The translations under genes and the position numbers were made by a program. DNA of 64,000 nt from a virus. The stretch is from IMG/VR virus record IMGVR_UViG_3300042259_000159. One strand, given 5' to 3'. Positions 7,479-44,885 of the stretch are shown one piece after another. Each line of letters opens with the position of its first letter. Position 1 is the stretch's first letter. A model generated the notes under the pieces. The model searched no databases and was not told where the DNA came from. It was given only the letters and a program-made list of their open reading frames with translations.

Positions 7479-8855
7479 ATGGAGATGTTTTTTAGCAACA
7501 AAGAGGTTATCAGGGCTTGGGAAAATGTTGTGAAAAAACTTAACGCCAGCGGTTTTAAAGGTGCCATTGTTGGCGGTGCAGTTAGGGATGTTTTTATGGG
7601 AAAGACTCCCACAGATATAGACATTGCTACAAATGCAACACCAGAGGAGGTTTGTAGCATCTTTAAAGGTGCTAAACTTGTTGGTGAAAGCTTTGGTGTT
7701 TGCCGTTGGAATGGCTATGAAATTGCTACTTATCGAAACGATGTCCACAACGGTATTGGTGATACTTGTTGCACCGTGAGGTATACAGACGATCTCATTG
7801 AAGACCTTAGGCGTAGAGACTTCACAATGAATGCTTGTGCATATGAGAGGCATCCTGACGGGACAACGCATTTTGTTATGGCACAGGCAGGTTGTCTGGA
7901 TGACATCGAGAATAAGCGTCTTGATTTTGTAGGCAATGCTGAAGATAGAATCAGGGAAGATCCCAACCGCAGCTTCAGAGCATACCGCATGATTTGCAAA
8001 ACAGGCTTTCTGCCGTCATATGCTACAGCAAAGATAATATACAACAGAGGTATTGTTGAAAAATATCTTCCGTACATTGCACCTGAGAGGATAGGTAAAG
8101 AGCTTATAAAATCTATGGAGGAGCCTTTCTCTTGGAATTTTTTTAGGTGTCTTTACAGGTCTGGTATTATGTACACTCTCATCCCTGAGATGGCACAGGC
8201 TTGGAATATTTGGGGAGGAAAATACCATGCAGAGTACGTTGGTGAACACCTTATGGCTGTTGGTATGGGTATCTCTGCAAAATTCCCCTTGCTGAGGCTT
8301 GCAGGGTATCTGCATGATGTTGGTAAGGGGGTAACACACGAGGATGGCAGCTTCATCCGGCATGAAAAAGAGGGCGTGCATATTGCGCGGAGGTTTCTTA
8401 AAAGCCTTAAGTTCTCTACAAAAGATACAGAGAAGGTTTGCAATATAATTCGTTGCCATATGCGTAGATTTGGTGAGAATGAAACGCCTGCTACAAACAG
8501 GCGAACCCTTGCATATCTTGCAAAACACAATGTCTGCACATACGATTTCATCCGTTTGCGGATTGCGGATCACAACGGCAACTTTGCATGCAAGAAGATG
8601 AAATTCAGAGATATTAAGTCCCTTGTCAGATGTTGGGACACCTATCAGTTTGAAAAACAAGCTGCCCATAGTAGGAAAATGCTTGCCATTAATGGCAGGG
8701 ATATTATGAAAGAGTTTAATATCCCTCCGTCAAGACTTGTTGGGGAGATGATTGAATTTGCCCATAATATTGTTCTTGACAATGTTGATAAAAACGAATA
8801 TAGTATCCTTATCAATGAAATTAAAAAGCGGTTCGGAGGTAGCAATGGCGAATGA
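7479..8855 (+). CDS. tRNA nucleotidyltransferase (CCA-adding enzyme) with HD phosphohydrolase domain
   Basis: Pol-beta nucleotidyltransferase motif GGAVRD...DIDIAT, RRDFTMNA; HD motif HLMAVG...YLHDVGK. Confidence 0.75.
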   Translation: MEMFFSNKEVIRAWENVVKKLNASGFKGAIVGGAVRDVFMGKTPTDIDIATNATPEEVCSIFKGAKLVGESFGVCRWNGYEIATYRNDVHNGIGDTCCTVRYTDDLIEDLRRRDFTMNACAYERHPDGTTHFVMAQAGCLDDIENKRLDFVGNAEDRIREDPNRSFRAYRMICKTGFLPSYATAKIIYNRGIVEKYLPYIAPERIGKELIKSMEEPFSWNFFRCLYRSGIMYTLIPEMAQAWNIWGGKYHAEYVGEHLMAVGMGISAKFPLLRLAGYLHDVGKGVTHEDGSFIRHEKEGVHIARRFLKSLKFSTKDTEKVCNIIRCHMRRFGENETPATNRRTLAYLAKHNVCTYDFIRLRIADHNGNFACKKMKFRDIKSLVRCWDTYQFEKQAAHSRKMLAINGRDIMKEFNIPPSRLVGEMIEFAHNIVLDNVDKNEYSILINEIKKRFGGSNGE

Positions 8856-10431: not shown

Positions 10432-10449
10432 GATTAATTTAAAAACCGC

Positions 10450-10478
10450 TTGACAAAATCAGGCGGTTTTTCTATTGT
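10450..10478 (+). promoter_or_regulatory. sigma70-like promoter (TTGACA-N17-TATTGT) embedded in a hairpin
   Basis: aaccgcTTGACAaaatcaggcggttttt; near-identical element at 16911-16947. Confidence 0.5.
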
Positions 10479-11759: not shown

Positions 11760-12094
11760 ACAAGTGTCAAGAAGAAATCCTTACTTTTGTTGTTGGGGTG
11801 GTTGCGGAGATGGAGCGTGAAACAGGAGCGGATATTTTTGTAAGTTACTCTCCCCACGTGTCTTGCATCAATGTTAATTTCCACGCTAATAAGTGGATAA
11901 GTGGACATGGATCAGATTTTGATGTGGTGTTTTATCTTGATTCTGAAGAGTATGATGATATAGCTGAAAGTTTCCTGTCTCTGGAGAATGCTAGGGATTT
12001 GATTGAAAAGCATCAACAAGATACCCTGCTTAGAAAGCAAAAAGCCATTAAGGAACTTGAAGAGCAGCTTAAACGCCTGAAAGAAGAGCAGTAA
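11756..12094 (+). CDS. hypothetical protein
   Basis: ATGA overlap with upstream gene. Confidence 0.5.
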   Translation: MNKCQEEILTFVVGVVAEMERETGADIFVSYSPHVSCINVNFHANKWISGHGSDFDVVFYLDSEEYDDIAESFLSLENARDLIEKHQQDTLLRKQKAIKELEEQLKRLKEEQ

Positions 12095-12103
12095 GTATTG
12101 AGG

Positions 12104-12128
12104 CCGGAAATAATCCGGCCTTTTTTAC
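12104..12128 (+). terminator. rho-independent terminator
   Basis: GGCCGG-aaataa-TCCGGCC hairpin followed by T6. Confidence 0.6.
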
Positions 12129-12290
12129 GTCTAAATCCAGAGGACTTTTTCATTTTAAAAGGTCTAGAGAGGTTTTTCATTTTGGGAGGTCTAAAGAACA
12201 TTTTCAATTTACAACCAAAAGTAAAAAGTCTAGAGAACATTTTTAATTTGAGGTCTAAAGAGGATTTTCATTTTCAGATTTTTGTATGAA
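12121..12290 (+). repeat. tandem ~27-bp imperfect repeats (GGTCTA[A/G]AGA...TTTTCATTT); first ~90 bp identical to 16694-16782
   Basis: Direct reading; five units here, three in the second copy. Confidence 0.8.
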
Positions 12291-12400
12291 AATGATACTC
12301 ATTATCACCGATAATGGTCGTTGAAAACGACATTCATTATCAACGATATTGATAATCATTTTCAATGATATTGAGTTTCATTATCAATCTAAATAGTAAC
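12290..12400 (+). repeat. cluster of CATTATCAA(C/T)G / TGATAA repeats
   Basis: cattatcaccgataatgg, cattatcaacgatattgataatcatt, cattatcaatc. Confidence 0.7.
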
Positions 12401-12659
12401 TATTACTAATAATAAAAATTGTGCAGGGGCGGTTTATAATGGATCTTAACCATGTGCCGGAATGCCTTTGATTTTTTCCTCGCTGGCAAAGACAGAATAT
12501 TAAAAATGCAAACGGCGGTCAAGCGGAAAATGAAAAAATATTAAAAATATTTTTTCGGCTTGCCATATCATTATATAGACGCTATATCCATCCCATACCA
12601 CAGACAATGAATGGAACGCGGAGGAATGGAGTTTTTATTAAAAATCGTCTGAAAAACAC

Positions 12660-12690
12660 TTGACAGTGATTCCGCTTTGTGTTTAGTTTT
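12660..12690 (+). promoter_or_regulatory. sigma70-like promoter (TTGACA)
   Basis: cacTTGACAgtg upstream of the gene at 12725. Confidence 0.4.
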
Positions 12691-12724
12691 TCACCTACAA
12701 GAACACAAAAAAGAGGTAAAGAAA

Positions 12725-12874
12725 ATGCCAACCATGTATCAATTTGCTAGTGCAACGCCCTACATCATTATTATTGTATCCATGCTGATCTGTGTCGGGA
12801 TCGGATCAACCCTTTCCAGTAAAAAAGATAGTAAGCACGCTTGGAACACAACATACAACGGTAAAAATATCTAG
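12725..12874 (+). CDS. small membrane protein
   Basis: Hydrophobic core PYIIIIVSMLICVGIG; GAGGTAAAG upstream. Confidence 0.45.
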   Translation: MPTMYQFASATPYIIIIVSMLICVGIGSTLSSKKDSKHAWNTTYNGKNI

Positions 12875-15323: not shown

Positions 15324-15383
15324 CTATCAAAAATAGTTAGCAATGTTTGAGAGGAAAGAAAAATAATTTTTTATAAAAACCGC

Positions 15384-15411
15384 TTGACAGGTGTAGGGCA
15401 TATTTGTATGG
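15384..15411 (+). promoter_or_regulatory. sigma70-like promoter (TTGACA-N16-TATGGT)
   Basis: ccgcTTGACAggtgtagggcatatttgTATGGT. Confidence 0.45.
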
Positions 15412-15445
15412 TTGCCCTACAGACAACAAAAAAGGACGGTTAAAA

Positions 15446-16639: not shown

Positions 16640-16673
16640 GGGCTACGTTAAAATTAGCAAAAACTTCAAAAAA

Positions 16674-16700
16674 GGCGTTGACAAGGTTGACGCCTTTTTT
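16674..16700 (+). terminator. hairpin plus T6, probable terminator
   Basis: ggcgttgacaaggttgacgcc followed by tttttt. Confidence 0.45.
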
Positions 16701-16782
16701 ACGTCTAAATCCAGAGGACTTTTTCATTTTAAAAGGTCTAGAGAGGTTTTTCATTTTGGGAGGTCTAAAGAACATTTTCAAT
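16694..16782 (+). repeat. second copy of the ~90-bp tandem-repeat element
   Basis: Identical to 12121-12209. Confidence 0.8.
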
Positions 16783-16918
16783 CCGATGCAGCCTTTGCCG
16801 CGTATAGCCGTGACCGCATTGGTTTGGATGGAGAACTGGAGGGATTGTATGCGTGTAAGCCTCCGCTAACACACATAAGGCTGCTTACAGTAAAAATAGA
16901 AAAACTATTCAAAACCGC

Positions 16919-16947
16919 TTGACAAAACCGGGCGGTTCTTCTATTGT
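16919..16947 (+). promoter_or_regulatory. sigma70-like promoter (TTGACA-N17-TATTGT) in a hairpin
   Basis: accgcTTGACAaaaccgggcggttcttcTATTGT; paralog of 10450. Confidence 0.5.
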
Positions 16948-16988
16948 GTTCCTAACGAACACAAACACTCAACAAAGAGAGGTAAAGA

Positions 16989-17333
16989 ATGTTTCCTATC
17001 AAGATGAATGTCAAGCATTTTTATGCCGCCAGAAAAGCGTTCCTGCATGCATTTATGCGCCACAACAACCCCGACAGTATATTCGACGAGACAGATTGCG
17101 CGATCAATGCCGTAAATCGTGAAAGAATCTATAAAAAAAGAGAAAAGGACGCGTTTGTTGTTGGATTTCTTGCGTTTTTGTCTGATATTGACAATATCAA
17201 AGAGCTGTACAGACAGCACGGGGAAGATGCTGTTATGAAGACTTGGCTAGTAGACAAAAAACTGGTGCTTACCGGTGACGAAGATATGATAGACGATGTT
17301 CTGTATAGGGTAGGGCTCAAGGTAGCTAAATAA
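16989..17333 (+). CDS. hypothetical protein
   Basis: ATG after GAGAGGTAAAG. Confidence 0.5.
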   Translation: MFPIKMNVKHFYAARKAFLHAFMRHNNPDSIFDETDCAINAVNRERIYKKREKDAFVVGFLAFLSDIDNIKELYRQHGEDAVMKTWLVDKKLVLTGDEDMIDDVLYRVGLKVAK

Positions 17334-17574
17334 TCAAAAAACCTCAAAACAACATAAATAACAGGAGCACACTATAACTGACCGCACATTCTTTATCCAC
17401 CTTATATCCGGCCACGTTGCTACGCTCGAAGAGTGGAGGGCAGACTATAAGTCAATGGATGCAGAACTATGGCACGGCAAGCCCGCTGAAGAGTGCAACC
17501 CTGATGAATGGCTTAAAGACGGCCTCCTTGAGGAATATGAAGCGGATCCCAACGAATAAAGCAGTTACACCACA

Positions 17575-17600
17575 GAGGCACCTATGAGGTGCCTCTTCTT
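17575..17600 (+). terminator. rho-independent terminator
   Basis: Perfect 8-bp stem gaggcacc/ggtgcctc, loop tatga, then ttctt. Confidence 0.55.
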
Positions 17601-17949
17601 ATGCCTACTAGCGCCGTTATCAGGGTAACGGCAGGAATCAGCGGGAAACATGTATATAAGGAAAGAAAAACTAAAAGATAACCTAGGACATACGTAAGAG
17701 GTAAAAAGCATTAGAAGGCGCATAAGGGGCACTAAATATGCCCCTTATTTGTTTGTGTGTCTAATAGGCTTTGTGTGTGCAAAAAGGCTTGTATAGCGGC
17801 TTTATCATGGAAGCCGCGCATACAGGCAAGGCTTTTAGCACTATATATGCACAGATACGGTGTATCCGTGAATATGGTTAATAATCTCTAAATACCTGCC
17901 CGAAAGATATGAAATATCTTGAGGGGGGAAACACACAATAATCCTCCTG

Positions 17950-18240
17950 TCAAGTGTTACTGATTTTGAATATCATTATCAATGGAGATATTGTCATTGA
18001 ACAGCATAACGCTGTTATACACACGGATCAATTAATTCCCATCGATCAGCATTTCGCTGGTGCTGCTGGAATCAACACTTGTTGAGATAATGACATCCAT
18101 TATCAATGCTGTTCAATGGCCGTTTTCAACGGCAATGTTTCACGTGAAACATTCCTGATCAGAATACTGGCAAGAAACATTGATAACGACAATCTTTATC
18201 AACGTATCTGGCGATCCTTTCAGGTTAACACAAATCTGGA
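17950..18240. repeat. TTATCAA(T/C)G repeat cluster with dyad symmetry (cattgaacagcat / atgctgttcaatg)
   Basis: Direct reading; non-coding. Confidence 0.7.
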
Positions 18241-18279
18241 AGAAAGTAAAGTAATATAAATTTTAATAAGGGGTTGACA

Positions 18280-18960
18280 TCTTCCTGATATTTTGATATT
18301 ATAGAAAGAGAGGCGTATGGGGAGGGGGGAGGCCTTAAGCACCGGTATACTTATATACCAAGTACCCCTATAGGTTCATGCCGGATATTTGCCCAAGTAC
18401 CCCTATAATGGTATACCGATATACTTATACACACCATATCTGCACACAGAAGGTATAGGGGGATATTTCCTGCTAGGATATTTCCACACAAAAAGGGGGA
18501 GTATATGGGAGGGATATTCCTGAAGGGAATAGATATTTTAGACAGGTATATATATATTATCTCTATGCTATATATACTCTATATATGTATATTCCATATA
18601 TACATATTTCTTCTTATTCTATTCTTCTATTTCTACTAATGAGATATATACATATTAGGACAGCATATGCATGTGTCTACATCACATGTAGACACATATA
18701 TACACATTCCCTTTCCTAACGGACAGCCGTATTATAACATATTTTTTGGATTTTGTCAAGAACTTTTTTGTATTTCACATGGAAAATATTTCATACCGGC
18801 TATTCCTTTTGGGAATAGCCTATTCCATTTTGGAATAACCATTCCTAGGGGAATAGCCTGTTCCCAGAGGGAACAGACATACCCGAAGGGAATAGATATG
18901 CCCATTGGAAATAGCAAAAGCCCACACACCTGTAAAGATATGTGGGCTGATAACATTAAC
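18280..18960. repeat. iteron-like array (TTCC-N5-GGAATAG units) plus TA-rich low-complexity repeats
   Basis: At least 6 units such as ttccttttgggaatagcc, ttccattttggaataacc, ttcctaggggaatagcc; aagtacccctata twice. Confidence 0.7.
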
Positions 18961-27679: not shown

Positions 27680-30600
27680 CTAAATGCTTTTATCTACAAA
27701 CTTTCTCTGTGGAAAATCAAATTCCCGCCTTGTTTTATTCCAAGCTTTTACGGGTGTAAAAAACCCAACAACCCTTGTCAGCTGTGTACTTATATCTTCC
27801 GAACATATGGGGCATGTACTGAAGGAACCCATAGAGACATGGGAGTTGATACACTCAGAGTATACGGTATTAATGGCAAAATGTTCACATCCACAACCCA
27901 AAGCAAAACAGATAATTTTCTTGGCCTGCTCTCTTGTCAGCCTCTGCCCGACAGTGGCATGAACAATCCCCCCGCCTGTTAGGTTTTTAGTATATTCTCC
28001 GTCAATTCTGAGCCTGTCCCACAGAGATGCCTCTTCCCACAAAGGAACAAACTGGTTTGCATAGAGAGGGTATTCTATAAAAGTATCGCCGTGAATGATC
28101 TTATCTGCGCTGCAAACTTTTACAGCCATACTCTCTGCTGGGATTTGCTCAATGTTGAAGACATATCCTGCGTTCTTCTTGGTATACAATCTAGCTTTTC
28201 TGTTAAGAAATGTCAAGATCTTTTTCTTCAAATCCCCCTCAACACCGAACCTTTGTTTAAGAACCTTTTCACACTCGTAAAGACCAAGAATACCAAACGT
28301 TGAAAAGAGCCTGTTGAGGTCTATCCACCCACGCGTTATAAAAGGCTGAAGACCTATTTGTTCAAGGACATGAATCAAGACCTTATGAGCAATCAGAATA
28401 TCTTTAGCAGCCTCTACACGGTACGTGTATATTTTCCAAAAATCATCAATACTCTCGGCCTCAATTGCCATCTTGTTGAAATTAAGAGTAACAACTCTAT
28501 GGCTCCCGATGCTGGAAAGAACACCGGCACCGAAAGAATTGGAGGTGGATGCCACATCTAACATCTCTTCATCATTGATCAATCGGCAACAGCTAGCGAT
28601 CTTTGTGCTCTCAGATGTGAAAATATTGTAGCGCGAAATGTCTCTATTAAGAAATATTTCCAAACTCTCTTCGTCTGCAAGGATGTAATCATCGCCGTCC
28701 TTAGTTTTTGAAATGTTCATCGTGCAAACAGGGAACCTGTAAGGCATCCCGTTATTTGAGGGATCTCCTTTATCAAAGATGTCTAGGAATATTTCCTGCA
28801 ATTCAAAAACATAGTCAACACACTCTTCTATATCTACAACACCACCATCTGAAAACATCCACAAAAGATGTTCCTTTATGATGTACCTGAGTTTGTGTTT
28901 ATCAAACACCGATACATTGGTAAAGGGACTCTCAACTCCGTCACGACTCAAATGGTTTACGCTGTGAATAAGCTGTTGAAACTCGTTTTCTATCTCTTTC
29001 CTCACAGCCTTATCGTTTTTAAGCACATCAAGGGGAACCTTATTCTTTATCATGAGAAGGTGAGCAACATCTATAAATACAGTACCTATGGCTAGAGCAC
29101 CAGCAACATGCGATGACATTTGGTGGATTGTCTCACACAGGGCGGCAATATAACTATTAACTCTTTTTGCCGGTTTAGAGGGCAATACTCCAAAAGTTCT
29201 TCCTTCTGTAATGAGATTTGTTGCGTTTAAAGAATAACAATTATGTTGCACCATTCCGTTTGCATAAAAACGGCCCGTTGCTGTTGTCAAATCATATACG
29301 TCTTGAAGCTCCTCTCTAAGCTTTCTTGTACTAGGAATGTCTTCAAGATTAAACCTGATGATTTTTACAACCCTGTTGCTTTCGCCCTTGGTGTTTGCTT
29401 TTTCATTATACTTATCATAGTCTTCTTTATGCATCTTCATCTTATCAGAAAGATCAACCATCTTATTCGTACTTGACGGGACAAAGGAAAGGGCATAAAT
29501 CGAATTAGAAATATCACTCCCTTTTATCCTTTTTCTAAGGCATCGAATACCTTCAATGCCTCTAAGGACGTCATAAAGTGTGTTTATTACTGCCATAGAC
29601 TGCAAACAAATCTCCACCCTGCCATTCTTTTTGTAGGTATATCCGTCCGCGTCTACAAGCCCCGCAACAAGTGCCTCTACAGAATCATTTGTCCAAGAGA
29701 GGATGTTCTTAGGAAGAACCTTTGTGAAGCTATTTTCTTTGTTCCCGAAACCAAAAAAGGCACTTACAAGAAAATTCATATCATAAGAAGACCAATTAAT
29801 CTGTCTCTCGACTTTATCACTGGGCTTAAAAAGATTCGCATCAGGAAACAAGTCTTTTATGATACTATAAATTCTTGAGTTATCAATATCGTTTTGATAA
29901 ACACTGCAAAGCGTTCCCCCTCTTGTAAATCTGAAAGAGCCTTTTATGTCCTTACCGTTCATTACGCCATCATCAACACAATACCCTTCAAAGTTCCCAT
30001 CACCAAGCATAAAGCCAAGAAGGTAGGCCAGCTTTTCTGGAACAATTATTGTTTTTTCCACGGAGGGCAAACAAGTCTCTGTCAAAACAGCATCCCCAAC
30101 AGAAAGTTCTGAGGCTATTTTTTCAGTTCCATCTTCCATATAGATTGGGTGGTTGTCTGTTACCAAAGCAAAGTGCCCTGCCTCTGTCTGATACAAAGAG
30201 AATCCTGTATCCGTTTTATGCTTGATAATACGTTGTACAGCAACCCATCCATTGTTTGTATCCCAAACCTCTATATTAACTTTTTCACTCACATTGCAGG
30301 CCAACTTACCGGAACGACCTTTTGCGGTGTTCTTGTTAGTGATGTTCGCACTCACATTATTACGCAGCATTGCTGTTGTAATCTCTAGATCTCTTGTAAG
30401 GCCTTTTGTGTTAATTTCCTCATGCGTACCCCTATTTTCGGAGTGTATTGCAAACATATTGAAAAGCTTTTTAAGAGGAATACAAATAATCTCTCCGTTA
30501 ATTCTGACAAAAACAGGCGTGTTTCCATAATACGAATATGGAAGGTTTAGCTTCGTGCTGTCGGAGATGGGAAGACTGAAATCCAACATTTCTCCTATAA

Positions 30601-30982
30601 GCCTTTTAGCCCTCTTCTTGCCGTAGAGTTCCTTCATAACACGGTAGAGGAAATCGTACCCTGCAATTTTTTTCTGGGGGGCACTTGCCTCACTCTGTAT
30701 TCCGGCAATTGTCTTCTCATTCTTATTAGCATTGTCATCAATAGAGACATCATTAATGTTTGCATTTAATTGTTTTTGAAACATCTTGAGAAAGTCTGTA
30801 TTGTCCTGCGAAAGACCATGCAGACGCATAAGTTTTTCAGCTTTTGTATCAATCTCTTCTTGAGAAAGGGTTGTTTTACGAGAAAGATTCCTTTTCAAAG
30901 CCTTAAGCATCTGTTTCCGTGTGTATTCAATCTCAGCATCATTTGTAAAAGATGAAGAAAAACCTTTAGCTATGCTATTCAA
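27680..30982 (-). CDS. nrdD: anaerobic ribonucleoside-triphosphate reductase NrdD (class III), interrupted by an intein
   Basis: C-terminal glycyl-radical-like TRVVGFF and CPICS zinc site; long ORF; likely TTG start at 30982 (AAGGAG 9 nt upstream) overlapping the nrdG stop; track ORF extends to 31051. Confidence 0.8.
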   Translation of the reverse strand: MNSIAKGFSSSFTNDAEIEYTRKQMLKALKRNLSRKTTLSQEEIDTKAEKLMRLHGLSQDNTDFLKMFQKQLNANINDVSIDDNANKNEKTIAGIQSEASAPQKKIAGYDFLYRVMKELYGKKRAKRLIGEMLDFSLPISDSTKLNLPYSYYGNTPVFVRINGEIICIPLKKLFNMFAIHSENRGTHEEINTKGLTRDLEITTAMLRNNVSANITNKNTAKGRSGKLACNVSEKVNIEVWDTNNGWVAVQRIIKHKTDTGFSLYQTEAGHFALVTDNHPIYMEDGTEKIASELSVGDAVLTETCLPSVEKTIIVPEKLAYLLGFMLGDGNFEGYCVDDGVMNGKDIKGSFRFTRGGTLCSVYQNDIDNSRIYSIIKDLFPDANLFKPSDKVERQINWSSYDMNFLVSAFFGFGNKENSFTKVLPKNILSWTNDSVEALVAGLVDADGYTYKKNGRVEICLQSMAVINTLYDVLRGIEGIRCLRKRIKGSDISNSIYALSFVPSSTNKMVDLSDKMKMHKEDYDKYNEKANTKGESNRVVKIIRFNLEDIPSTRKLREELQDVYDLTTATGRFYANGMVQHNCYSLNATNLITEGRTFGVLPSKPAKRVNSYIAALCETIHQMSSHVAGALAIGTVFIDVAHLLMIKNKVPLDVLKNDKAVRKEIENEFQQLIHSVNHLSRDGVESPFTNVSVFDKHKLRYIIKEHLLWMFSDGGVVDIEECVDYVFELQEIFLDIFDKGDPSNNGMPYRFPVCTMNISKTKDGDDYILADEESLEIFLNRDISRYNIFTSESTKIASCCRLINDEEMLDVASTSNSFGAGVLSSIGSHRVVTLNFNKMAIEAESIDDFWKIYTYRVEAAKDILIAHKVLIHVLEQIGLQPFITRGWIDLNRLFSTFGILGLYECEKVLKQRFGVEGDLKKKILTFLNRKARLYTKKNAGYVFNIEQIPAESMAVKVCSADKIIHGDTFIEYPLYANQFVPLWEEASLWDRLRIDGEYTKNLTGGGIVHATVGQRLTREQAKKIICFALGCGCEHFAINTVYSECINSHVSMGSFSTCPICSEDISTQLTRVVGFFTPVKAWNKTRREFDFPQRKFVDKSI
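29240..30298 (-). other. intein with LAGLIDADG homing endonuclease domain inside NrdD
   Basis: Hint block B VTDNHPIY; LAGLIDADG motifs LAYLLGFMLGDGNF and LVAGLVDADGY; C-terminal VQHN followed by Cys; N-terminal boundary uncertain (may extend to ~30535). Confidence 0.7.
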
Positions 30983-31490
30983 AGCAGTAAACTCCTTCTT
31001 TTGTAAGTTTAACATAATTATTATTATAAAGTTCTTGGTTAGACGAACCAAGTACGAGTTTTGTCCTTTGCCCTTTTGTTGTATCTGACTGGTGCAGTTC
31101 TTTTATATACTCTCCTGTTTTTATAAATTTGAAACCGTTAAGATTAAGGTATTTAACAGTGTCAATATCGTATCCAGTATAAATACATATGTTAAAACAC
31201 CCACCGTATTGTTCTAAGAACTGTGCTGTAAACCCTCTGTTGCAGGAGGCTAGCGGATCTCCACCAAGAAGTACAATATTATTTGTGCGGTATTTTAAGG
31301 TCTCCTGTTTACAATGGTTGTAGAAGTCTTCAATGGAAAATTCCACACCACCCTGATATTCAGGGTTTTGCAGGGAGGGGTTATGACACCCCTTACAGGA
31401 AAAATCACACCCACACATAAAAAGACTTACTGCCCACCCATCCTTTGAGGGGTAGTCTGTAAATGTCATCTCAGAACCTGCAAATCTCAT
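30975..31490 (-). CDS. nrdG: anaerobic RNR activating enzyme NrdG (radical SAM)
   Basis: CGCDFSCKGC radical SAM-type cysteine motif; adjacent to nrdD. Confidence 0.75.
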   Translation of the reverse strand: MRFAGSEMTFTDYPSKDGWAVSLFMCGCDFSCKGCHNPSLQNPEYQGGVEFSIEDFYNHCKQETLKYRTNNIVLLGGDPLASCNRGFTAQFLEQYGGCFNICIYTGYDIDTVKYLNLNGFKFIKTGEYIKELHQSDTTKGQRTKLVLGSSNQELYNNNYVKLTKEGVYCFE

Positions 31491-33953: not shown

Positions 33954-34037
33954 TGGTAGGAGAAGAGAGATTCGAACTCTCAAGGAATAATCCGTCGAGG
34001 CTTAAACTCGATGTGTTTACCATTTCACCATTCTCCC
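33954..34037 (-). tRNA. tRNA-Leu (anticodon UAA), type II, CCA encoded
   Basis: Manual fold: acceptor GGGAGAA/TTCTCCT, anticodon loop TTTAAGC, long variable arm, T-loop TTCGAAT. Confidence 0.65.
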
Positions 34038-34045
34038 GTATTTTT

Positions 34046-34067
34046 TATCTACCATTCCGCCATTCCC
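34046..34067 (-). other. orphan tRNA 5' fragment (Leu-like acceptor + D-arm)
   Basis: GCGGGAATGGCGGAATGGTAGA with no matching 3' half. Confidence 0.4.
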
Positions 34068-34076
34068 GCATTTATT

Positions 34077-34153
34077 TGGTACCCACTGTGAGATTCGAAC
34101 CCACACTAATCAGTTTCTAAGACTGATGCCTCTGCCAAGTTGGGCTATACCAG
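34077..34153 (-). tRNA. tRNA-like gene (class I, anticodon UAG) with mismatched acceptor stem; probably chimeric or disrupted
   Basis: D-arm, anticodon arm TCAGT-CTTAGAA-ACTGA and T-arm fold, but 5' ACTGGTA does not pair with 3' AGTGGGT. Confidence 0.4.
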
Positions 34154-34184
34154 TATTATGCTTATTATTTTATTTTGAAAGGCC

Positions 34185-34235
34185 ATATGTATACACATAT
34201 ATATATATACATATATATATGTATAGAGCAACCAA
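34185..34235. repeat. TA-rich microsatellite
   Basis: atatgtatacacatatatatatatacatatatatatgtatag. Confidence 0.8.
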
Positions 34236-34412
34236 AATGGTTAAATAAAAAGGTGTTTTGTGGAGACACCAAACTCCTCCAGTTTTAGTGATCTGGAAAC
34301 AATAAGCGGCGCAGGTGCTCTTTAAAACACGTGCTACCAAGCGTATAAATTGTCTAGGGGATTTCACCAAACACATTATGTTATTGGAGGGATCTTTCCC
34401 TAGACTCAGTAA

Positions 34413-34485
34413 AGCTCCTGACAGGACTTGAACCCGCAACCGGCTGATTACAAATCAGCTGCTCTGCCAGTTGAGCTACAGGAGC
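34413..34485 (-). tRNA. tRNA-Thr (anticodon UGU), CCA not encoded
   Basis: Manual fold: acceptor GCTCCTG/CAGGAGC, D-arm GCTC..GAGC, anticodon loop TTTGTAA. Confidence 0.7.
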
Positions 34486-34489
34486 AGAA

Positions 34490-34561
34490 CAGAGGGAGAA
34501 GGATTCGAACCTTCGAATGACGGGACCAAAACCCGTTGCCTTACCGCTTGGCTACCCCTCT
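34490..34561 (-). tRNA. tRNA-Gln (anticodon UUG), CCA not encoded
   Basis: Manual fold: acceptor AGAGGGG/TCCCTCT, anticodon stem ACGGG/CCCGT, loop TTTTGGT. Confidence 0.65.
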
Positions 34562-34569
34562 AAATTTTT

Positions 34570-34646
34570 TGGCTCCGGCGGCAGGATTTGAACCTACATT
34601 CGCAATGGTTAACAGCCATTTGCCTTACCAATTCGGCGACACCGGA
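34570..34646 (-). tRNA. tRNA-Asn (anticodon GUU), CCA encoded
   Basis: Manual fold: acceptor TCCGGTG/CGCCGGA, anticodon stem AATGG/CCATT, loop CTGTTAA. Confidence 0.65.
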
Positions 34647-34691
34647 ATGAACTTTTTATTTGTTATCAGCATTGTTTTGCTTTATTTTAAA

Positions 34692-34770
34692 TGGTCTCGG
34701 TGATTAGATTTGAACTAATGATTATTCCTGCTCCCAAAGCAGGTGCCATACCAAGCTAGGCGACACCGAG
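34692..34770 (-). tRNA. tRNA-Pro (anticodon UGG), CCA encoded
   Basis: Manual fold: acceptor CTCGGTG/CACCGAG perfect, anticodon stem CCTGC/GCAGG, loop TTTGGGA. Confidence 0.6.
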
Positions 34771-35251
34771 ATCAGGTGTGGTACCAAACTCCACTATGGG
34801 CAGAGGTTATAAGAAGGTCCGTACATGATATAGACAGATATTCTTCCATAACAGCGGTACGGACGCTGTCTCATTTTTATATCTTTCAGTGTGCTATTAC
34901 GCCAAAGGGAAATTAAGCCTTACCAGTTACGGGGTGCCCTTTTACTATCCACAAAGAATTTCAAATCGCGTGCATTCTAAGTATCGGAAAATTCTACAAC
35001 CACTTAAAGTACACCTCGTTTAAGAGATAGCGACCTGTGCTTCGTCCCACTCTTTAAAGGATGGCTGCCTCAAAGCCCACCTCCTGAAAAATGCATGAAG
35101 GATTATCCCTCCTTCGCTAAATACAACCTATCAATTTTAAGGGTTCTTGTCAAGAACATTTTAAGGTTTTTGAAATTTTTGTTGAACGCTGATTTGCTAC
35201 GCGGGTACAGCGTTCGAAACCTCGATAGCATCCTTGCCGTTGGCAAAGCTG

Positions 35252-35393
35252 TCAGGAGCCGCAGGAGGAGAATTGAACTCCTCTGGCATCAACACGCAGT
35301 CACCACAACTACATCTACCGTTACGGGTATGGCTCCCCATCCTAGTCACCTGTTGATACCTTATAGGTTCAGCCCTACCAAGGGCACTGCGGC
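35252..35393 (-). ncRNA. tRNA-like structured RNA (~142 nt) with 7-bp acceptor-like stem and T-arm; possible intron-containing or disrupted tRNA
   Basis: GCCGCAG ... GAGGAGTTCAATTCTCCTC CTGCGGC; body too long for a standard tRNA. Confidence 0.3.
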
Positions 35394-35399
35394 TTAAGT

Positions 35400-35620
35400 G
35401 GGTTGGTTGGTGCAGATTGTGAACGTACCCCCGCCTATAGAGGCGGAAGCTTCCTGCTTCAGCGAGAACAGCACCAGTAACTCCGAAGAGTTGTGGCGAA
35501 TTACACTCTCTCCACAGGCGTAAATTCCCGTGCGACCCACGGTACTTTATGAGTTACGCTAGGCAGATATTCGCCCAGCTTCTTCTCTAATATTTATTGC
35601 AGCGTTCTTGTCACGGTTAT
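35400..35620 (-). ncRNA. putative TnpB guide (omega) RNA region overlapping the tnpB 3' end and right end
   Basis: Position relative to tnpB; subterminal hairpin CCGCC-tataga-GGCGG at 35431-35446; no direct RNA evidence. Confidence 0.35.
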
Positions 35621-36795
35621 GATGACTGCCACACTTAAGGCAATCCCATTCCCGCACAGACAAGTCTTTGGTATCCTTGTTCTGGTAGCCACAGACATGG
35701 CATAGCTGACTGCTTGGATACCATTTGTCTATCTTGATAAGTTGCTTACCCTGCCATGCAAGTTTGTATTTCAGCATACTTGTGAACATGCTCCAGCCGT
35801 TGTCGGATATGGATTTACCAAAGTTGAACTTGCCACCCTTCTTTCGCTTCGCCATGTCCTTTACGCTAATGTCCTCTATGCCAATCACATCATAGCGGTC
35901 TGCAAGATAACGAGCTTTCTTATGCAGGAAGTCGCGGCGTTGATTAGCAATTTTCTCATGGAGTACAGCCAAACGTAGTCTTTGTTTATTCCTATTACGG
36001 CTCCCTTTTTGTCTCTTGGAGAGTTTTCTTTGTGCCTTGATCAATCTCTTTTCGGCTTCCCGTAAGAAATTTGGATAATCGGCGTTGTCCTCATCGGAAG
36101 CAACATACATCCCGTGCATAGCAAAATCCAATCCAAGAAAATTCTTCGGTATGATGGGAAGTATTTGGTTTTCATACTCCACCAAAATACTAATATAGTA
36201 TTTTCCTGACGGTGTTTTACTTATGGTTACAGTCTTTATGGTGCTATTCTCCATCAATGGACGATGCAGACACAGCTTTACCCAACCTATTTTCGGCAGC
36301 TTGACTTTGTTTCCCTCGATTCTTACAGAGCCATGTTGGTTGTTCGTAGAATATGAAGCATGACCCGCTTTCTTCGACTTGAAGCGTGGCTTGCAAAAAT
36401 GCTTCCTATTGCTCCAAAAGTTGTTATACGCCTTGTTCAGGTTTATTTGGGCATTGGCGAGAGCAAGGCTGTCAACCTCTTTCAGCCAAGGAAACTCTTT
36501 CTTGTACTGTGCAGGTGTGTTGTTCAGCCTCTCTCCTGTTTCCTTATAGTGATCAAGACGATCTCCAAGCATCTTGTTATAGATGAATCTGGCACTGCCG
36601 AAAGTCTTGGCAAACATAATCTTCTGTTCAATTGTCGGGTAGAGTCTATATCGGTATGCCTTATTCACTATAATCACCTGCCTTGATTTTCTATGTATTT
36701 ACGAATTGTCTCAAACGGAGCAATTATCTGGCTCAACTACTTACGTAAATTCGCTAGACACACCTTCATCCCCCACCTTAGAGGTGGAGGGCTTC
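35425..36795 (-). mobile_element. IS200/IS605-family element, TnpB-only (IS1341-like)
   Basis: tnpB ORF flanked by similar subterminal hairpins at 36773-36787 and 35431-35446; no tnpA seen. Confidence 0.7.
35559..36677 (-). CDS. tnpB: TnpB (IS200/IS605 OrfB, RuvC-like RNA-guided nuclease)
   Basis: N-terminal YRYRLYPT; C-terminal zinc finger CHVCG...CLKCG; 372 aa. Confidence 0.85.
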   Translation of the reverse strand: MIIVNKAYRYRLYPTIEQKIMFAKTFGSARFIYNKMLGDRLDHYKETGERLNNTPAQYKKEFPWLKEVDSLALANAQINLNKAYNNFWSNRKHFCKPRFKSKKAGHASYSTNNQHGSVRIEGNKVKLPKIGWVKLCLHRPLMENSTIKTVTISKTPSGKYYISILVEYENQILPIIPKNFLGLDFAMHGMYVASDEDNADYPNFLREAEKRLIKAQRKLSKRQKGSRNRNKQRLRLAVLHEKIANQRRDFLHKKARYLADRYDVIGIEDISVKDMAKRKKGGKFNFGKSISDNGWSMFTSMLKYKLAWQGKQLIKIDKWYPSSQLCHVCGYQNKDTKDLSVREWDCLKCGSHHNRDKNAAINIREEAGRISA

Positions 36796-36799
36796 TGGC

Positions 36800-36843
36800 G
36801 GGTTAGGTTAAATCCCTTGTGTCTACTAATTCCACCAATCGGG
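36800..36843 (-). other. partial tRNA-Leu-like 5' fragment next to the IS left end
   Basis: GCCCGATTGGTGGAATTAGTAGACAC duplicates the 5' end of tRNA-Leu at 36940 but lacks a foldable remainder. Confidence 0.4.
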
Positions 36844-36853
36844 CTAAAATCTT

Positions 36854-36940
36854 TGGTGCCCAATGCAGGACTCGAACCTGCACGCCATTTCAGGCAGGAG
36901 GGCTTAAACCTCGTGTGTCTACCAATTCCACCAATCGGGC
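36854..36940 (-). tRNA. tRNA-Leu (anticodon UAA), type II, CCA encoded
   Basis: Manual fold: acceptor GCCCGAT/ATTGGGC, anticodon loop TTTAAGC, long variable arm. Confidence 0.6.
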
Positions 36941-36949
36941 TAAAATCTT

Positions 36950-37033
36950 TGGTGCCTCAGACAGGATTCGAACCTGCACGGATCTCTCCACTTGGTCCTA
37001 AGCCAAGCGTGTCTGCCATTCCACCACTGAGGC
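36950..37033 (-). tRNA. tRNA-Leu (anticodon UAG), type II, CCA encoded
   Basis: Manual fold: acceptor GCCTCAG/CTGAGGC perfect, anticodon stem CTTGG/CCAAG, loop CTTAGGA. Confidence 0.65.
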
Positions 37034-39544: not shown

Positions 39545-40254
39545 TTAGATAGTAAACAGTTTTTCAACACCTTTCTTGCTTCCCGTGTTCTTTGTCAGGC
39601 TGCTTACAATTTCTTTTTTCCAAATGCAAGTAAAATCTTCTGGAGCATTATATTCTGAAACAAACACCTTATGTCCCTCATTAGCCTTATCTCTGCACCA
39701 CTGCCAAAACAACTCATGGTCAAAATCATTAGAGTACTTTGTTGTCCCTGAATAGGGCGGATCACAGTAGATTAAGCTGTTACTGGGGATATGTAGCTCA
39801 TCATAAGGACAACACAAAAATTCTACATTTTGAATTAGCGAGGACTGTTTTATTGCTGATTGCTTACTACGTTTTGTTTGTATTATCATGTTTTCAATAT
39901 CACCTTTTGTTCCTGCTTTGTCCCGCCTATACCCCCCAAAAAATTTACCACCAAAAGACATTGAAAATGCTGTAAATCCAGTTAAACCATCAATATTTTT
40001 GTGTTTTTTCATTGAATTGTACATATCTTCTGTAATAATTTCAGGAATACTTTTTGGTGCATCGCGTATAAGTTTTAATGCTTCTATTACATACGGGCTG
40101 CAATGGCGGCCCCAATACGATTCCCATCAACCTTATCAATCATGTTTCCACCTCCAACAAACGGTTCAACCCACCACTGGTCAGGTTTTCTTTCTGCAAG
40201 CATAATTGGGAGGATATACTTTGCTATTCTGTTTTTACTTCCCATGTATTTCAT
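39545..40254 (-). pseudogene. dam: Dam-like DNA adenine methyltransferase, frameshifted
   Basis: N-terminal part (MKYMGSKNRIA...EPFVGGG) ends at TAA 40091-40093; C-terminal part with IYCDPPY continues in another frame; frames overlap over a CCC run. Confidence 0.65.
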
Positions 40255-40329
40255 ACTTACCTCCTGTTTTTGTTTTAGTTGTAAGGTGCTTTTACCTGTC
40301 AATATCAAACTACCCCTATTCCCCCTGTT

Positions 40330-40470
40330 TGTCAATACCTTATTCTTATCTAAACATAAGATATATATATTATATATATATTCTTTATATAATATAAATA
40401 TATATACTTTATATATAGTATATTTATATAATATATATATGTATATAATATATATACTCCTACTCACTAC
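40330..40470. repeat. TA-rich low-complexity repeat upstream of dam
   Basis: atatatattatatatatattctttatataatataaatatatatac... Confidence 0.8.
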
Positions 40471-40603
40471 GAGACACATACATAATATATACATTAACCC
40501 TTCCTGCAAAGGAAGCCGTAGGATACCATAAAAAAGAGATTTTGTCAAGCATTATTTTAAGAAATGTTAAAAATAATTTCCTAACCTAATCTCTATTTTT
40601 TAC

Positions 40604-40910: not shown

Positions 40911-41050
40911 TAGGTTTTGAATTAATAATTAAAAATGATAATGAATTTCATTGTCTTTTGTAATCTTCTAAGATGTCTTAGATAGGCATCCGAAAAGTAT
41001 AGGGGAGTTTCCCTCCTTTTCTCCCCTATAAAATATTAACAGGAGGTAAT

Positions 41051-41922: not shown

Positions 41923-42199
41923 GGTGCCGCAGGTTCGGGAAAGTCATACATAATGAATATGATACCTTTGAGGTATGTCGATTGCCCCAACTTTAGGGGG
42001 ATTGTCTTCCGAAGGGAAACGACACAGCTTACAGGTGAAGGGGGGATGTGGGATACAGCAACGGAGATATACTCTGAGCTGCCTAAAAATATCAGGCCCA
42101 AAATATTGAAACATAACCTGAGAATGATTTTTCCGAATGGGGCAAAAATTAAGTTTTCACACATGGAAAATGATAATGATTTCAGGAAACATCAAGGGT
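41923..42199 (+). CDS. terL: terminase large subunit, exon 2 (Walker A)
   Basis: GAAGSGKSY ... FSHMENDNDFRKHQG. Confidence 0.65.
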
Positions 42200-42453
42200 T
42201 AATTAGTAGCCCCTTGTGTTGGTGACAGCGCAAGCAAACTAACCTAATTCGGTGGAAGCCCAAACATGTAGGATGTGGGTGATACCGAGCAAGCCACGGC
42301 GTGTGTAACGACTAGTTCTTAGGAACGTAGGCCCAAGCGGGTCGAAACGGTTAGCATCTTATTAAGATGAAGATATAGTCTACTCTGCATGGAAACATGC
42401 AGCGGACACTTTATGTGTCGGGCAGATGTTAGCGCCATCTGTTGAATATTATG
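42200..42453 (+). other. group I intron 2 in terL
   Basis: R gtgtgtaacgactagttcttagg at 42301; S gaagatatagtctactctgcatggaaacatgcag at 42369. Confidence 0.6.
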
Positions 42454-42562
42454 TACAATATACCCTGATATGCTTTGATGAGGCAACACATTTCACTTTC
42501 CAACAAGTTGAATACTTAATGTCACGTATGAGAAGTAAAAGTAAGTATGCTTCTCGTATGGT
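42454..42562 (+). CDS. terL: terminase large subunit, exon 3 (Walker B)
   Basis: QYTLICFDEATHFTFQQVEYLMSRMRSKSKYASRM. Confidence 0.6.
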
Positions 42563-42846
42563 TCTGTCGTGGATTACGCGACATGTATGGCGAAAGCTGT
42601 ACTGGCAACTGTGTGAACTCAGGGAAACCTTAGCTGCTGCAATTGGGCAGAGGAAGAAGGCAATCCTGAGCGAAGCCTTCCCACCGGGAAGGAACGTGCA
42701 ACGACCATCGAAAGCGTAACACCTGTTACAGTGAGTAGAGTACACCACACATGTGTGGTGGAAGCGCACAGCCCCTAACATGTAACGATGAGGGTGAAGA
42801 TATGGTCTGAACCTACAGAAATGTAGAAAAAGGTAAACAAATACAG
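42563..42846 (+). other. group I intron 3 in terL
   Basis: Shared 48-bp motif caatcctgagcgaagccttcccaccgggaaggaacgtgcaacgaccatc; S-like gaagatatggtctgaacc at 42796. Confidence 0.55.
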
Positions 42847-43162
42847 GATAATCGGTAACCCAGATCCTGATAGTTGGCTTTTGCCTATGGTAGAGTGGTA
42901 CTTAGATGAACAAGGATACCCCGACCAGTCTAAAGATGGGGTTGTAAGATGGTTCATTAGAAAGAATGGTGAGTTTATCTGGAGGGATACAGAAGAAGAA
43001 ATCTATAGAGATTTTGGAACAGGCCCGTCTATACGCCCTGTATCCTTTACATTCATCTCTGCAAATATCTATGATAACCCTATTATGATAGAGACCAATC
43101 CAGACTATCTTGCAATGCTTGAAGGCCTCAACGAGGTTGATAAGGCAAGATTACTACGCGGT
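42847..43162 (+). CDS. terL: terminase large subunit, exon 4
   Basis: IIGNPDPDSWLLPMVEWYLDEQGYPD...; the NP motif is only in frame once intron 3 is removed. Confidence 0.6.
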
Positions 43163-43444
43163 TAACAGTGGCCGCATATAGTAGTGATATTATATGAAAA
43201 ATTGTGTGAATTCAGGGGACACCTAAACAGGCAACGCTTTGTGCTGTAGGCAATCCTGAGCGAAGCCTTCCCACCGGGAAGGAACGTGCAACGACCATCC
43301 TGAGTAGGAGTAGGGCCAAGCGGTTCCGAAGCGCACAACATCTCATTGAGATGATGATATGGTCTGATCTATATGGAAACATATAGCTGACACGGTGTAT
43401 ATTACGTGTCGGGCACGTCTTAGCGAGACGTGCTGAACAAAATG
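43163..43444 (+). other. group I intron 4 in terL
   Basis: Same 48-bp motif at 43250; S-like gatgatatggtctgatctatatggaaacatatag at 43371; 3' end ...ctgaacaaaatg. Confidence 0.55.
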
Positions 43445-44167
43445 AACTGGTATGCTAGACCACAGGATAGTGGATACTTTAAAAGAGATTGGCTGCAACG
43501 TTGTGTTGAGGCACCTACTGATACAAAGTGGGTACGTGCTTGGGATAAAGCAGCTACAGAGCCGAGTGACACAAACCCCTCTCCTGACTATACAGCTTGT
43601 ATAAAGATGGGGAAAGATAGAGCAGGAAACTACTACATTGCTGGCGATTTTGTGGAAGAAAACTATGATGAAGACAGCAAGACATATGGCAGGTTCAGGA
43701 AAAGAGCAGGTGCAAGAGATAATATCATCTTGAAACAGGCACTTGCTGATGGCCATGATTGTGAGGTTGTTCTTCCTCAAGACCCCGCTGCTGCGGGTAA
43801 GACGGAATACATTGAATCAGCAAAGAAATTAATAGAGCAAGGTATCCGTTGCAGAAAGGATGTGGTTGCATCTAACAAATCTAAGCTAATAAAGTTTTCA
43901 CCGTTTTCTGCATCATGCGAGAATGGGCTTGTTTACATCTTGGATGCAACATTTACCCAAAAAACATTGAATGCATTTTATACAGAGCTTGAATCTTTCA
44001 ACGGAGAAGCAAGCACAAGAACACGAAAGGATGATTGGGTTGACTGCACAGCAATGGCATTCAACTACCTATCTAAAAAAAGTGTACTTCCCAATTTTAC
44101 ACTAGATGAGTGGGGAGGTACATCGGTAAAAACACCCCTCTCAATTGTGAGGGCCAACTTTCATTAA
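43445..44167 (+). CDS. terL: terminase large subunit, exon 5 (nuclease domain)
   Basis: WVRAWDKAAT...DYTACIKMGKDRAGNYYIAGDFV; the five exons total 1500 nt (500 codons). Confidence 0.65.
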   Translation, partial: NWYARPQDSGYFKRDWLQRCVEAPTDTKWVRAWDKAATEPSDTNPSPDYTACIKMGKDRAGNYYIAGDFVEENYDEDSKTYGRFRKRAGARDNIILKQALADGHDCEVVLPQDPAAAGKTEYIESAKKLIEQGIRCRKDVVASNKSKLIKFSPFSASCENGLVYILDATFTQKTLNAFYTELESFNGEASTRTRKDDWVDCTAMAFNYLSKKSVLPNFTLDEWGGTSVKTPLSIVRANFH

Positions 44168-44178
44168 GGAGGGCACTG

Positions 44179-44885
44179 GTGGTAAAAGAGGGCAGCAAGT
44201 CTGCTACAAAAACAACCACTTCTAAGAAATTCAACCTATCTGAAAAAGGGTATATAGGACTTAATCAGGTAAATGGCCGCATTTATGAGGAAAGTCGTGA
44301 TGCTTTAAGGTTCCCTAATGCGACAAAGACCTTTAAAAAGATGTCCTATGACCCTGTAATATCCGCTGCAAATTCCACAATAGATCTTATGATAGGTCGT
44401 GTGCAGTGGTTCTTCGATGTTCCTGATACAGCCAGTGATAAGGCAAAAGAAGCAGCAGAATTTTTAAATTACTGTATGAACAGCATGGATATGGGAACAT
44501 GGGAAGATTTCATTACTGAGTGTGGTAGCTATAGACGTTACGGCTTTCACATAGCGGAAAAAGTCTACAACAAGGTTAAAGAAGGGAAGTGGAAGGGAAA
44601 GTATAAGTGGAAAAAACTACCAACAAGAGCACAAGACACCATTGAAGAGTGGGTCTTTAGTAAGGATAACAGGGAGCTTTTAGGCTTAAAACAGTCAACA
44701 AGAAATGTGACACACCCACTGGCATTAAAGAGCCTTACAGGCTATATAGAAATACCAAGGTCAAAATTCATACATTTTGCCTACGATGGGTATAGAGATA
44801 ACCCAGAGGGAAGAAGCCCGTTAGTTGGTGCCTACATCCCTTGGACATATAAAACACTCATAGAGGAATATGAGGCTGTCGGCGT
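44179..44885 (+). CDS. portal protein, exon 1
   Basis: GTG start 6 nt after AAGGAGG; portal-sized product after splicing. Confidence 0.55.

Follow-up and report, generated by a model that had tools for sequence, protein, structure and literature searches.

A constrained array of two-part direct repeats behind a terminator in an uncultured gut phage, and arrays of similar build in Felix O1-like phages

The window, that is, the whole stretch of 64,000 nucleotides analysed here, corresponds to the final 64 kb of a metagenome contig of 117,169 bp from an uncultured, contractile-tailed gut virus. The phage carries genes for a T7-type primase-helicase, a PolA-type polymerase, an anaerobic ribonucleotide reductase, ThyX, a ligase and several DNA methylases, together with eight tRNA genes and five group I introns, and its capsid gene is found on an IMG/VR contig other than the 91.6-kb contig that overlaps the window. 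No GenBank phage matches it at the DNA level, and its primase-helicase is 44% identical to that of Pseudomonas phage vB_PsaM_M1, a member of the Ounavirinae (the Felix O1 subfamily). An IS605-type TnpB of the phage is 94-96% identical to copies from Phascolarctobacterium and 81-94% identical to those of other Negativicutes. On the strength of this one mobile gene, the host is likely a Phascolarctobacterium (Negativicutes).

Several other features of the window are worth recording. The tnpB gene (35559-36677) lies between two duplicated tRNA-Leu(taa)/tRNA-Leu(tag) pairs (33954-37033, - strand), and its insertion looks to have duplicated part of the tRNA cluster. The five introns (Rfam RF00028, 51-96 bits) are unusually dense and are located at 42190-46349 on the + strand, at the start of the structural/packaging module. 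In the ribonucleotide reductase ORF (27680-31051, - strand, 1123 aa), only residues ~550-1122 match phage NrdD, and an additional domain, an intein or a fusion could account for the N-terminal half. Two ORFs at the divergent strand switch (40087-40548 and 39545-40024, - strand) give partial matches to Dam-type (D12) methyltransferases and may represent a split or decayed methylase gene; the first contains a long AT/TA simple repeat (40341-40458, GC 0.02), which may be the most AT-rich spot of the window and a candidate unwinding region. A 1.1-kb non-coding gap at the convergent strand switch (17560-18670; also 18800-18915) contains TA repeats, repeated CCAAGTACCCCTATA words, GGGAATAGCC-type repeats and, on the - strand, a perfect TTGACA-17-TATAAT promoter.

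Genes run on the + strand from position 1 to ~17.5 kb, and between 9 and 17.5 kb they are small ORFs, mostly acidic in product and mostly without family matches. Many of these ORFs are preceded by a hairpin with a TTGACA -35 box in its loop (10441-10471, 16672-16700 and 16913-16937), followed by a TATTGT-type -10 box after the T tract. Such composite promoter/terminator cassettes occur at 10441-10478, 12652-12690, 15376-15412, 16672-16700 and 16911-16947, and it is exactly at these points that the gene content of close relatives differs: two of them (L133 and L134) depart from the window at cassettes, where indels begin and end. Comparable elements of T4-type phages, termed PeSL, combine an early promoter with a terminator stem-loop and mediate gene shuffling (PMC2839356, PMC4122927). 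The window cassettes share the PeSL design (a -35 box inside the loop, a -10 box that follows the T tract, and repetition between small genes), but their sequences are unrelated.

The small-gene block contains a single long non-coding gap (12095-12724), which the repeat array opens. The upstream gene, coding for 112 aa, ends in an intrinsic terminator at 12100-12127 on the + strand (GAGGCCGGAAATAATCCGGCC followed by T6, a 9-pair stem with 6 GC pairs), whose hairpin and T tract (12100-12122) immediately precede the array. The array itself, designated copy 1, spans ~150 bp and consists of five head-to-tail units on the + strand, four intact and one degenerate. Each unit is a two-part, 23-nt direct-repeat site, GGTCTARAGA-N3-TTTTCATTTT, in which box A (GGTCTARAGA, where R is a degenerate position) is separated from box B, TTTT(C/T)A(A/T)TTT, by a gap that is constant at 3 nt in every unit. 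The units start at 12128, 12161, 12188, 12227 and 12252, and the last one ends at 12274. Unit 1 (12128-12156) is the degenerate one, its box A being split by a 4-nt insertion (CGTCTAAA[TCCA]GAGGACTTTTTCATTTT). Unit 2 (12161-12183, GGTCTAGAGAGGTTTTTCATTTT) has no mismatch to the consensus, unit 3 (12188-12210, GGTCTAAAGAACATTTTCAATTT) has one and unit 4 (12227-12249, AGTCTAGAGAACATTTTTAATTT) has three; unit 5 (12252-12274, GGTCTAAAGAGGATTTTCATTTT) is extended by a tail, CAGATTTTTGTATGA, up to 12290. The original prediction of five units thus stands, with the first one disrupted. Its description of contiguous ~27-bp tandem repeats proved only roughly right: the repeats are direct, with spacers of 4, 4, 16 and 2 nt between the units and box B start-to-start distances of 27, 27, 39 and 25 nt, which are out of helical phase (multiples of ~11 or 22 bp).

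The motif is confined to two places. A search of the window for GGTCTARAGANNNTTTTCATTTT with up to three mismatches returned six matches, all within copy 1 and a second copy, against 0.02 expected from shuffled sequences. The 9-mer core of the motif occurs just once outside the copies, and an exact scan of the overlapping 91.6-kb IMG/VR contig found the motif at these two places alone. The second copy results from a 91-nt block at 12118-12208 that is repeated with 100% identity at 16692-16782; the identical duplicate noticed earlier is therefore real, with coordinates (12121-12209 and 16694-16782) that were off by 1-3 nt. This repeat also explains the single assembly break observed at the array, in the contig L125. 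The last 10 nt of the 12100-12127 terminator belong to the duplicated block, which in both places opens within the 3' arm and T tract (GCCTTTTTT) of a terminator.

Behind the terminator and the array, the gap continues with dyad repeats, an AT-rich stretch, ATTGTGCAGGGGCGG, TATAAT, ~200 nt of conserved non-coding DNA and a promoter cassette. The dyads are four Fur-box-like sites (TGAnnnTCATTATCA) at 12287-12390, spaced by ~22 nt within the conserved non-coding block, and their number varies from ~3 to 5 among relatives. They differ from the Bacillus-type sequence TGATAATnATTATCA by 1-3 mismatches, and one dyad of the related contig L129 (GATAATGATAATCATTCTC) matches the 19-bp E. coli Fur consensus at 18/19 positions. 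Further Fur-like dyads are found in the convergent gap (four, scattered at 17961-18206 within 17.6-18.7 kb) and in the AT-rich region near 40.9 kb (one, at 40931-40950). The dyads could be sites for host Fur, serving iron-dependent control or the titration of Fur by replicating phage, or they could be operators for a phage protein. The AT-rich stretch at 12391-12440 (+ strand) closes the most conserved block with ATTGTGCAGGGGCGG at 12418-12432 and TATAAT at 12435-12440. GC content falls to a minimum of 0.12 within 12332-12426, which places this segment among the four most AT-rich spots of the window, although the region at 40.3-41.0 kb is far lower (GC 0.02-0.08). About 240 nt downstream of unit 5, a lone inverted box B (TTTTCATTTT) lies on the - strand at 12521-12536 and is conserved in three relatives (L127, L129 and L136). 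The conserved neighbouring genes encode acidic products without Pfam matches, and no Pfam DNA-binding or Rep domain was detected in twenty neighbouring ORFs.

Homologues of the flanking 112-aa and 60-aa proteins led us to seven related contigs from other samples, which represent five haplotypes. In all seven, copy 1 directly follows the terminator. The array is 96-99% identical among these relatives vs 82-93% for the flanking genes. Against L127, it shows 2 differences in 159 nt, compared with 41 in 339 nt for the upstream gene (88% identical); against L136, the array is 98% identical and the two downstream genes 82-83% (Fisher p = 1e-5 and 9e-7 for the array-versus-gene contrasts). The positions at which the array does vary are informative. 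Five of the eight are in spacers, two are the degenerate R of units 4 and 5, and one falls in the broken unit 1, where the A>G change at 12135 in L136 is the sole variable box A site outside the degenerate R. In unit 4, variation among relatives is confined to that R position (12233). Consequently, variable sites number 0/87 at fixed core positions and 8/72 elsewhere (p = 0.0014). The core was defined from unit-to-unit comparison within the window alone, so that this test is independent of the definition, although it rests on eight variable sites, the relatives being few and close. Conservation extends beyond the array, since the most conserved block covers 12098-12440 (96-100% identity to L136, dropping to 52% at 12561-12724), and part of the signal could stem from a recent exchange of this block in its entirety. 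As judged from these comparisons, the array is real and under constraint, kept almost unchanged by selection. The stem of the terminator is likewise kept among relatives, with a loop that is flipped or changed; when the hairpin at 12104-12117 is compared with its counterpart in the contigs L126-L130, the loop is exactly inverted between relatives (AAATAAT vs ATTATTT) above an unchanged stem, which looks like a flip of the hairpin and not like point mutation.

Copy 2 appears to have a different history. It contains units 1-3 at 16702-16730, 16735-16757 and 16762-16782 (+ strand), with the third ending 2 nt early, at 16782. It begins inside the terminator/promoter hairpin at 16672-16700 (+ strand), which carries a TTGACA -35 box and whose -10 box has been replaced: this position reads ACGTCT in the window and TATTGT or TATTAT in the other cassettes and in L133. 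Comparison of the window cassette (..GGCGTTGACAAGGTTGACGCCTTTTTT|ACGTCT..) with the intact cassette of L133 (AAAAAGGCATTGACAAGGTTGGTGCCTTTTTCTATTAT) shows that the 91-nt block took the place of the -10 box. On the right, copy 2 abuts the 3' remnant (16783-16862, + strand) of a paralogue of the upstream 109-aa gene, itself a member of a large family. The remnant was missed by BLASTP and was identified with a profile of 120 family members, which matches its last 27 codons in frame 1 (positions 80-106 of 106, E = 2.6e-5). The two closest relatives, L133 and L134, share their samples with L126 and L127, and in neither does copy 2 follow the orthologue of the 109-aa gene; in L134, this orthologue runs straight into the next gene. 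L134 is devoid of the whole segment between two direct repeats, CAAAAAC(T/C)TCAAAA, located at ~16655 and ~17335 (16655-17350 in the window), and the window ORF that follows the second repeat is probably a pseudogene, its start codon having been lost in the window (ATG>ATA, ~17375).

The absence from the closest relatives, the start inside a hairpin, the replaced -10 box and the remnant at the other end indicate that copy 2 is a recent product of recombination. It is, on this evidence, a lineage-specific partial duplicate, a recombination scar as opposed to a second designed site. It was made by recombination at the GCCTTTTTT end that is common to the two terminator hairpins, combined with an illegitimate join, in a cassette-mediated shuffling of the kind described for T4-type phages. 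This likeness to PeSL elements accounts for the origin of copy 2 and leaves the role of the array unexplained. Both copies do follow a hairpin plus T tract, as initially noted (12100-12122 and 16672-16700), but treating the two copies as equivalent is misleading: conservation is limited to copy 1, whereas copy 2 is lineage-specific with its left junction inside a terminator, and its position is a consequence of how it arose.

A number of known element types were considered for copy 1 and rejected. The two ORFs that run over the array (35 aa on the + strand, 75 aa on the - strand) are both broken by a 1-nt indel in L129 and L130, which rules out a coding repeat. A CRISPR array would require unique spacers of ~25-40 nt, vs 2-16 nt here; the original prediction had already set this possibility aside, correctly. 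The likeness to CRISPR arrays and RNA anti-CRISPRs is limited to short direct repeats in a phage and to a loose similarity with the 5' part of the Cas12a repeat. A mimic of that repeat was rejected as well, as neither a repeat hairpin nor a 3' handle (TCTACT..GTAGA) is present anywhere in the window. Moreover, when the array was compared with two published Cas12a repeats (sequences checked against PMC10583194), 27 and 311 of 2000 shuffles scored as well (p ~0.014 and 0.16), and other sites of the window score equally. Tandem sigma-70 promoters reach only 9/12 matches, on the - strand, and need a 27-nt spacing that fails for units 4 and 5. The motif is not a phage-wide promoter either, being absent from the rest of the window and of the 91.6-kb contig. 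Sites for known host regulators (SinR, CtsR, CodY, LexA, MetJ, boxA and others) gave partial short-consensus matches that were inconsistent from unit to unit. DNA searches with the array yielded nothing useful in phages near and distant, no match in bacterial genomes and, among metagenome contigs, only the contig of L128; the array block gave weak matches to plasmids, restricted to its Fur-like part, and a loose two-unit pattern retrieved chance matches only in viral contigs.

A more productive lead came from Erwinia phage FIfi106, in which GTCTGGAGAGGTTTTTCATTTT is identical at 21 of 22 positions to the last 22 nt of unit 2 (GTCTAGAGAGGTTTTTCATTTT). With up to two mismatches allowed, 0.017 matches would be expected by chance in the Ounavirinae loci, and 0.12 in the entire set of loci scanned. 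The match lies inside a 459-bp intergenic gap, on the gene strand, within four direct repeats that start just past a terminator. This gap matches 273 Ounavirinae GenBank records, and when Kolesnikvirus is compared with Felixounavirus, the repeat part is the only portion of the gap that aligns. Arrays of the same build are present in FIfi106, Pistou and Escherichia phage AYO145A, each on the gene strand and directly preceded by a terminator, with a small-gene block downstream that ends in a convergent non-coding gap of 1.1-1.5 kb. None was found at the start of the FIfi106 genome, nor in vB_PsaM_M1, the nearest GenBank relative of the window phage by its primase-helicase. Gap-free alignment of twelve units from three phages over the 23 columns of boxes A and B gives the consensus GGTCTAGAGAGnTTTTTCATTTTnAAATTGTGCATAnAG.

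In AYO145A, the T tract of the annotated orf014 terminator (8354-8401) already forms the beginning of the array (8392-8600). Downstream come ~200 nt, a promoter, small genes over ~6 kb, a convergent gap of 1.5 kb that is rich in repeats and, finally, opposite-strand genes, which is the order of array, small genes and convergent gap found in the window. Felix O1-like phages have, at the place of the convergent gap of the window, a similar repeat-rich gap of 1.4-1.5 kb (14.9-16.4 kb in AYO145A) full of CTTGTTA and GTCTnTAAAG words. In the same genome (NC_028825.1), terminators at 3515, 5308 and 8393 are each trailed by TTTTT(C/A)ATTT(C/G).., which corresponds to box B, and the tail at 3515 continues into a solitary full unit (..TTTGTGCAGAG).

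The arrays of the window and of the Felix O1 type thus share four to five direct units on the gene strand, placed at or just past an intrinsic terminator, and have boxes A and B in common, with GGTCTAGAGAGnTTTTTCATTTT as family consensus; the window units display the Felix O1-type succession of a GGTCTnGAGAGG-like box A and a box B (TTTTTCATTTT). They also share a layout in which the array precedes ~5-6 kb of small genes with sigma-70-type promoters, a repeat-rich convergent gap of 1.1-1.5 kb and opposite-strand genes. The Felix O1-type unit is however longer (~38 nt vs 23 nt), owing to a third part, ..AAnnnGTGCA(G/T)AG, which is absent from window units 1-4. In the window, this part is seen only in the unit 5 tail, which resembles it (..AAnTTGTGCA..) in alignment, and in a lone copy at 12418-12432 (ATTGTGCAGG at 12418-12427). 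Because the third part is mostly missing, we class the window array as a variant and not as a typical Felix O1-type member. Furthermore, the dyad cluster is specific to the clade of the window phage, and the hosts belong to different phyla. A tblastn search with 25 window proteins against the corresponding regions of AYO145A, FIfi106 and Pistou gave no hit at E <= 1e-3, so that the link to Felix O1 is founded on the motif and on genome layout; intermediate forms were not found in IMG/VR. The unrelated flanking genes, the lack of an array in vB_PsaM_M1 and the missing intermediates speak against a simple common origin. On the grounds of motif and layout, we place the window array in a family of terminator-proximal arrays that Felix O1-like phages carry as well. 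The family appears to be undescribed: the array is annotated in no GenBank record, we found no published description of Felix O1-type arrays, and the array is missing from the repeats listed in the paper on the Felix O1 genome, which describes temporal control as not understood (PMC3185647).

It could be argued that the array has no function of its own and is a by-product of slippage or recombination at terminator tails, carried along with a conserved regulatory block. Box B does resemble the ordinary terminator tails of AYO145A, copy 2 demonstrates that such pieces are copied by recombination at terminators, and high conservation characterizes the entire block 12098-12440, not the array alone. 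We nevertheless judge this explanation improbable, since variable sites avoid exactly those positions that the units have in common (p = 0.0014, see above) and since 273 Felix O1-like genomes retain an array at the same site, amid flanking non-coding DNA that has diverged beyond alignment.

A packaging or genome-end element, akin to the arrays of short repeats that flank the T7 terminal repeats, was also considered. Short direct terminal repeats do occur in Felix O1-like phages (PMC3185647; 608 bp in PMC4837284; PMC11984208), and gene direction does not change across the gap, as would be the case at the junction of circularised ends. The start of Fifi318 set by PhageTerm is nonetheless located ~1.3 kb upstream of the terminase gene and not at the array (PMC11984208), and the terminase-side module of the window starts near 41 kb. 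With the assembly break in L125 accounted for by the 91-nt repeat, a genome-end function is considered very unlikely.

An action at the RNA level, with the units serving as sites for an RNA-binding protein or as processing or decay signals, in a read-through transcript or in a - strand transcript that starts in the dyad region, is a possibility to which we give little credence. The orientation relative to transcription is identical in all lineages examined, box B doubles as the U tract of the terminator in AYO145A, and a - strand promoter-like sequence (TTGAAA-18-GATAAT, 12365-12336) points into the array. On the other hand, a strong terminator precedes the array and should leave little + strand RNA. 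The fold z-scores of the array on the two strands (-1.87 and -1.72) are barely better than those of shuffles, no compensatory substitution or covariation is seen among relatives, and Rfam 15 returned no match at gathering score and nothing credible at E <= 10 in 12050-12750. A structured RNA or a known RNA family was rejected on these grounds, and the earlier suggestion of a small repeated RNA finds no support; the alternative offered at the time, an iteron or operator array, remains apt as a description, as the putative sites are direct, two-part and non-coding and substitutions avoid their core.

The main rival explanation is a replication origin, in which the units would be iterons, or primosome-loading or priming sites for a replisome made of the T7-type primase-helicase and PolA, the dyads a second class of sites and the AT-rich stretch the unwinding region. 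Five repeats of iteron size (23-bp core) adjoin dyads spaced at ~22 nt and an AT-rich segment, the replication genes lie upstream in the same direction of transcription, and the number of dyads differs among relatives, as is often so for iterons. GTC, which we take to be the core of T7-type primase recognition sites, is present in every intact unit. As in the iteron regions of R6K, P1 and the lambda ori, and in the two-locus ori/crr system of P4, direct repeats of ~20 bp with an asymmetric two-part site stand next to AT-rich DNA, and the second partial set 4.6 kb away is reminiscent of P4. Unlike origin iterons, however, the array has an off-phase spacing that is no multiple of the helical repeat, a second set that is not conserved and no initiator gene, Rep-type or other DNA-binding, detected nearby. 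In addition, the motif is common to very distant phages, whereas iterons usually co-vary fast with their initiator; the AT/TA-repeat region of the divergent switch is far more AT-rich than the stretch behind the array; and GC skew does not turn at 12 kb. Taken together, these points lead us to regard an origin as rather unlikely, if the most serious of the competing explanations.

Based on the above data, we propose that the array is probably some kind of protein-binding array acting at the DNA level. The units look like protein-recognition sites in that their two-part core is fixed, the spacers and the R position are free, the orientation is direct and there is no coding or RNA signal, although spacings of 27/27/39/25 bp would be unusual for a cooperative array. 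Each 23-bp unit would be the site of a sequence-specific DNA-binding protein, with presumably one molecule per unit. The loaded array, the dyads and the AT-rich stretch would form a protein-DNA complex that marks the border between the replication-side gene block and the cluster of small early-type genes. Such a boundary element would reinforce the terminator by limiting read-through and would govern access to the promoter region that lies downstream. Within the protein-binding interpretation, a boundary role behind the terminator is slightly preferred, doubtful as it is, because units or box B-like tails are found at terminators (copy 1 in the window, FIfi106, three in AYO145A) and because the orientation is constant. 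It should be kept in mind that any element opening an intergenic gap follows a terminator, which makes this association by itself weak evidence for a boundary. The full proposal, a cis-acting protein-binding array that marks the border of a transcription unit, is put forward tentatively, as slightly more open to doubt than to belief. Protein binding, the nature of the binder and the boundary function are what we infer from the features described above; no candidate binding protein was found for the array. A bolder version, of slim probability, is that the units are recognised by a factor common to Erwinia/Escherichia and Phascolarctobacterium, likeliest RNA polymerase or a protein that travels with it, and that the arrays constitute a new class of terminator-coupled boundaries.

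Two consequences are of general interest. An exact repeat in the early region of a phage can be a scar of recombination between terminator cassettes, not a second functional site. In addition, a recognisable form of array is common to Felix O1-like phages and to a distant gut phage with a host of another phylum. Since Felix O1-like phages are widely used for typing and biocontrol, an array at a fixed place of their genomes provides a concrete and cheap handle on the timing of transcription and the start of replication in Felix O1. If a shared factor does recognise the units, the arrays would be the cis element still lacking from an explanation of temporal control in Felix O1-type phages (PMC3185647). 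The array family is widespread and is experimentally accessible through the cultivable Felix O1.
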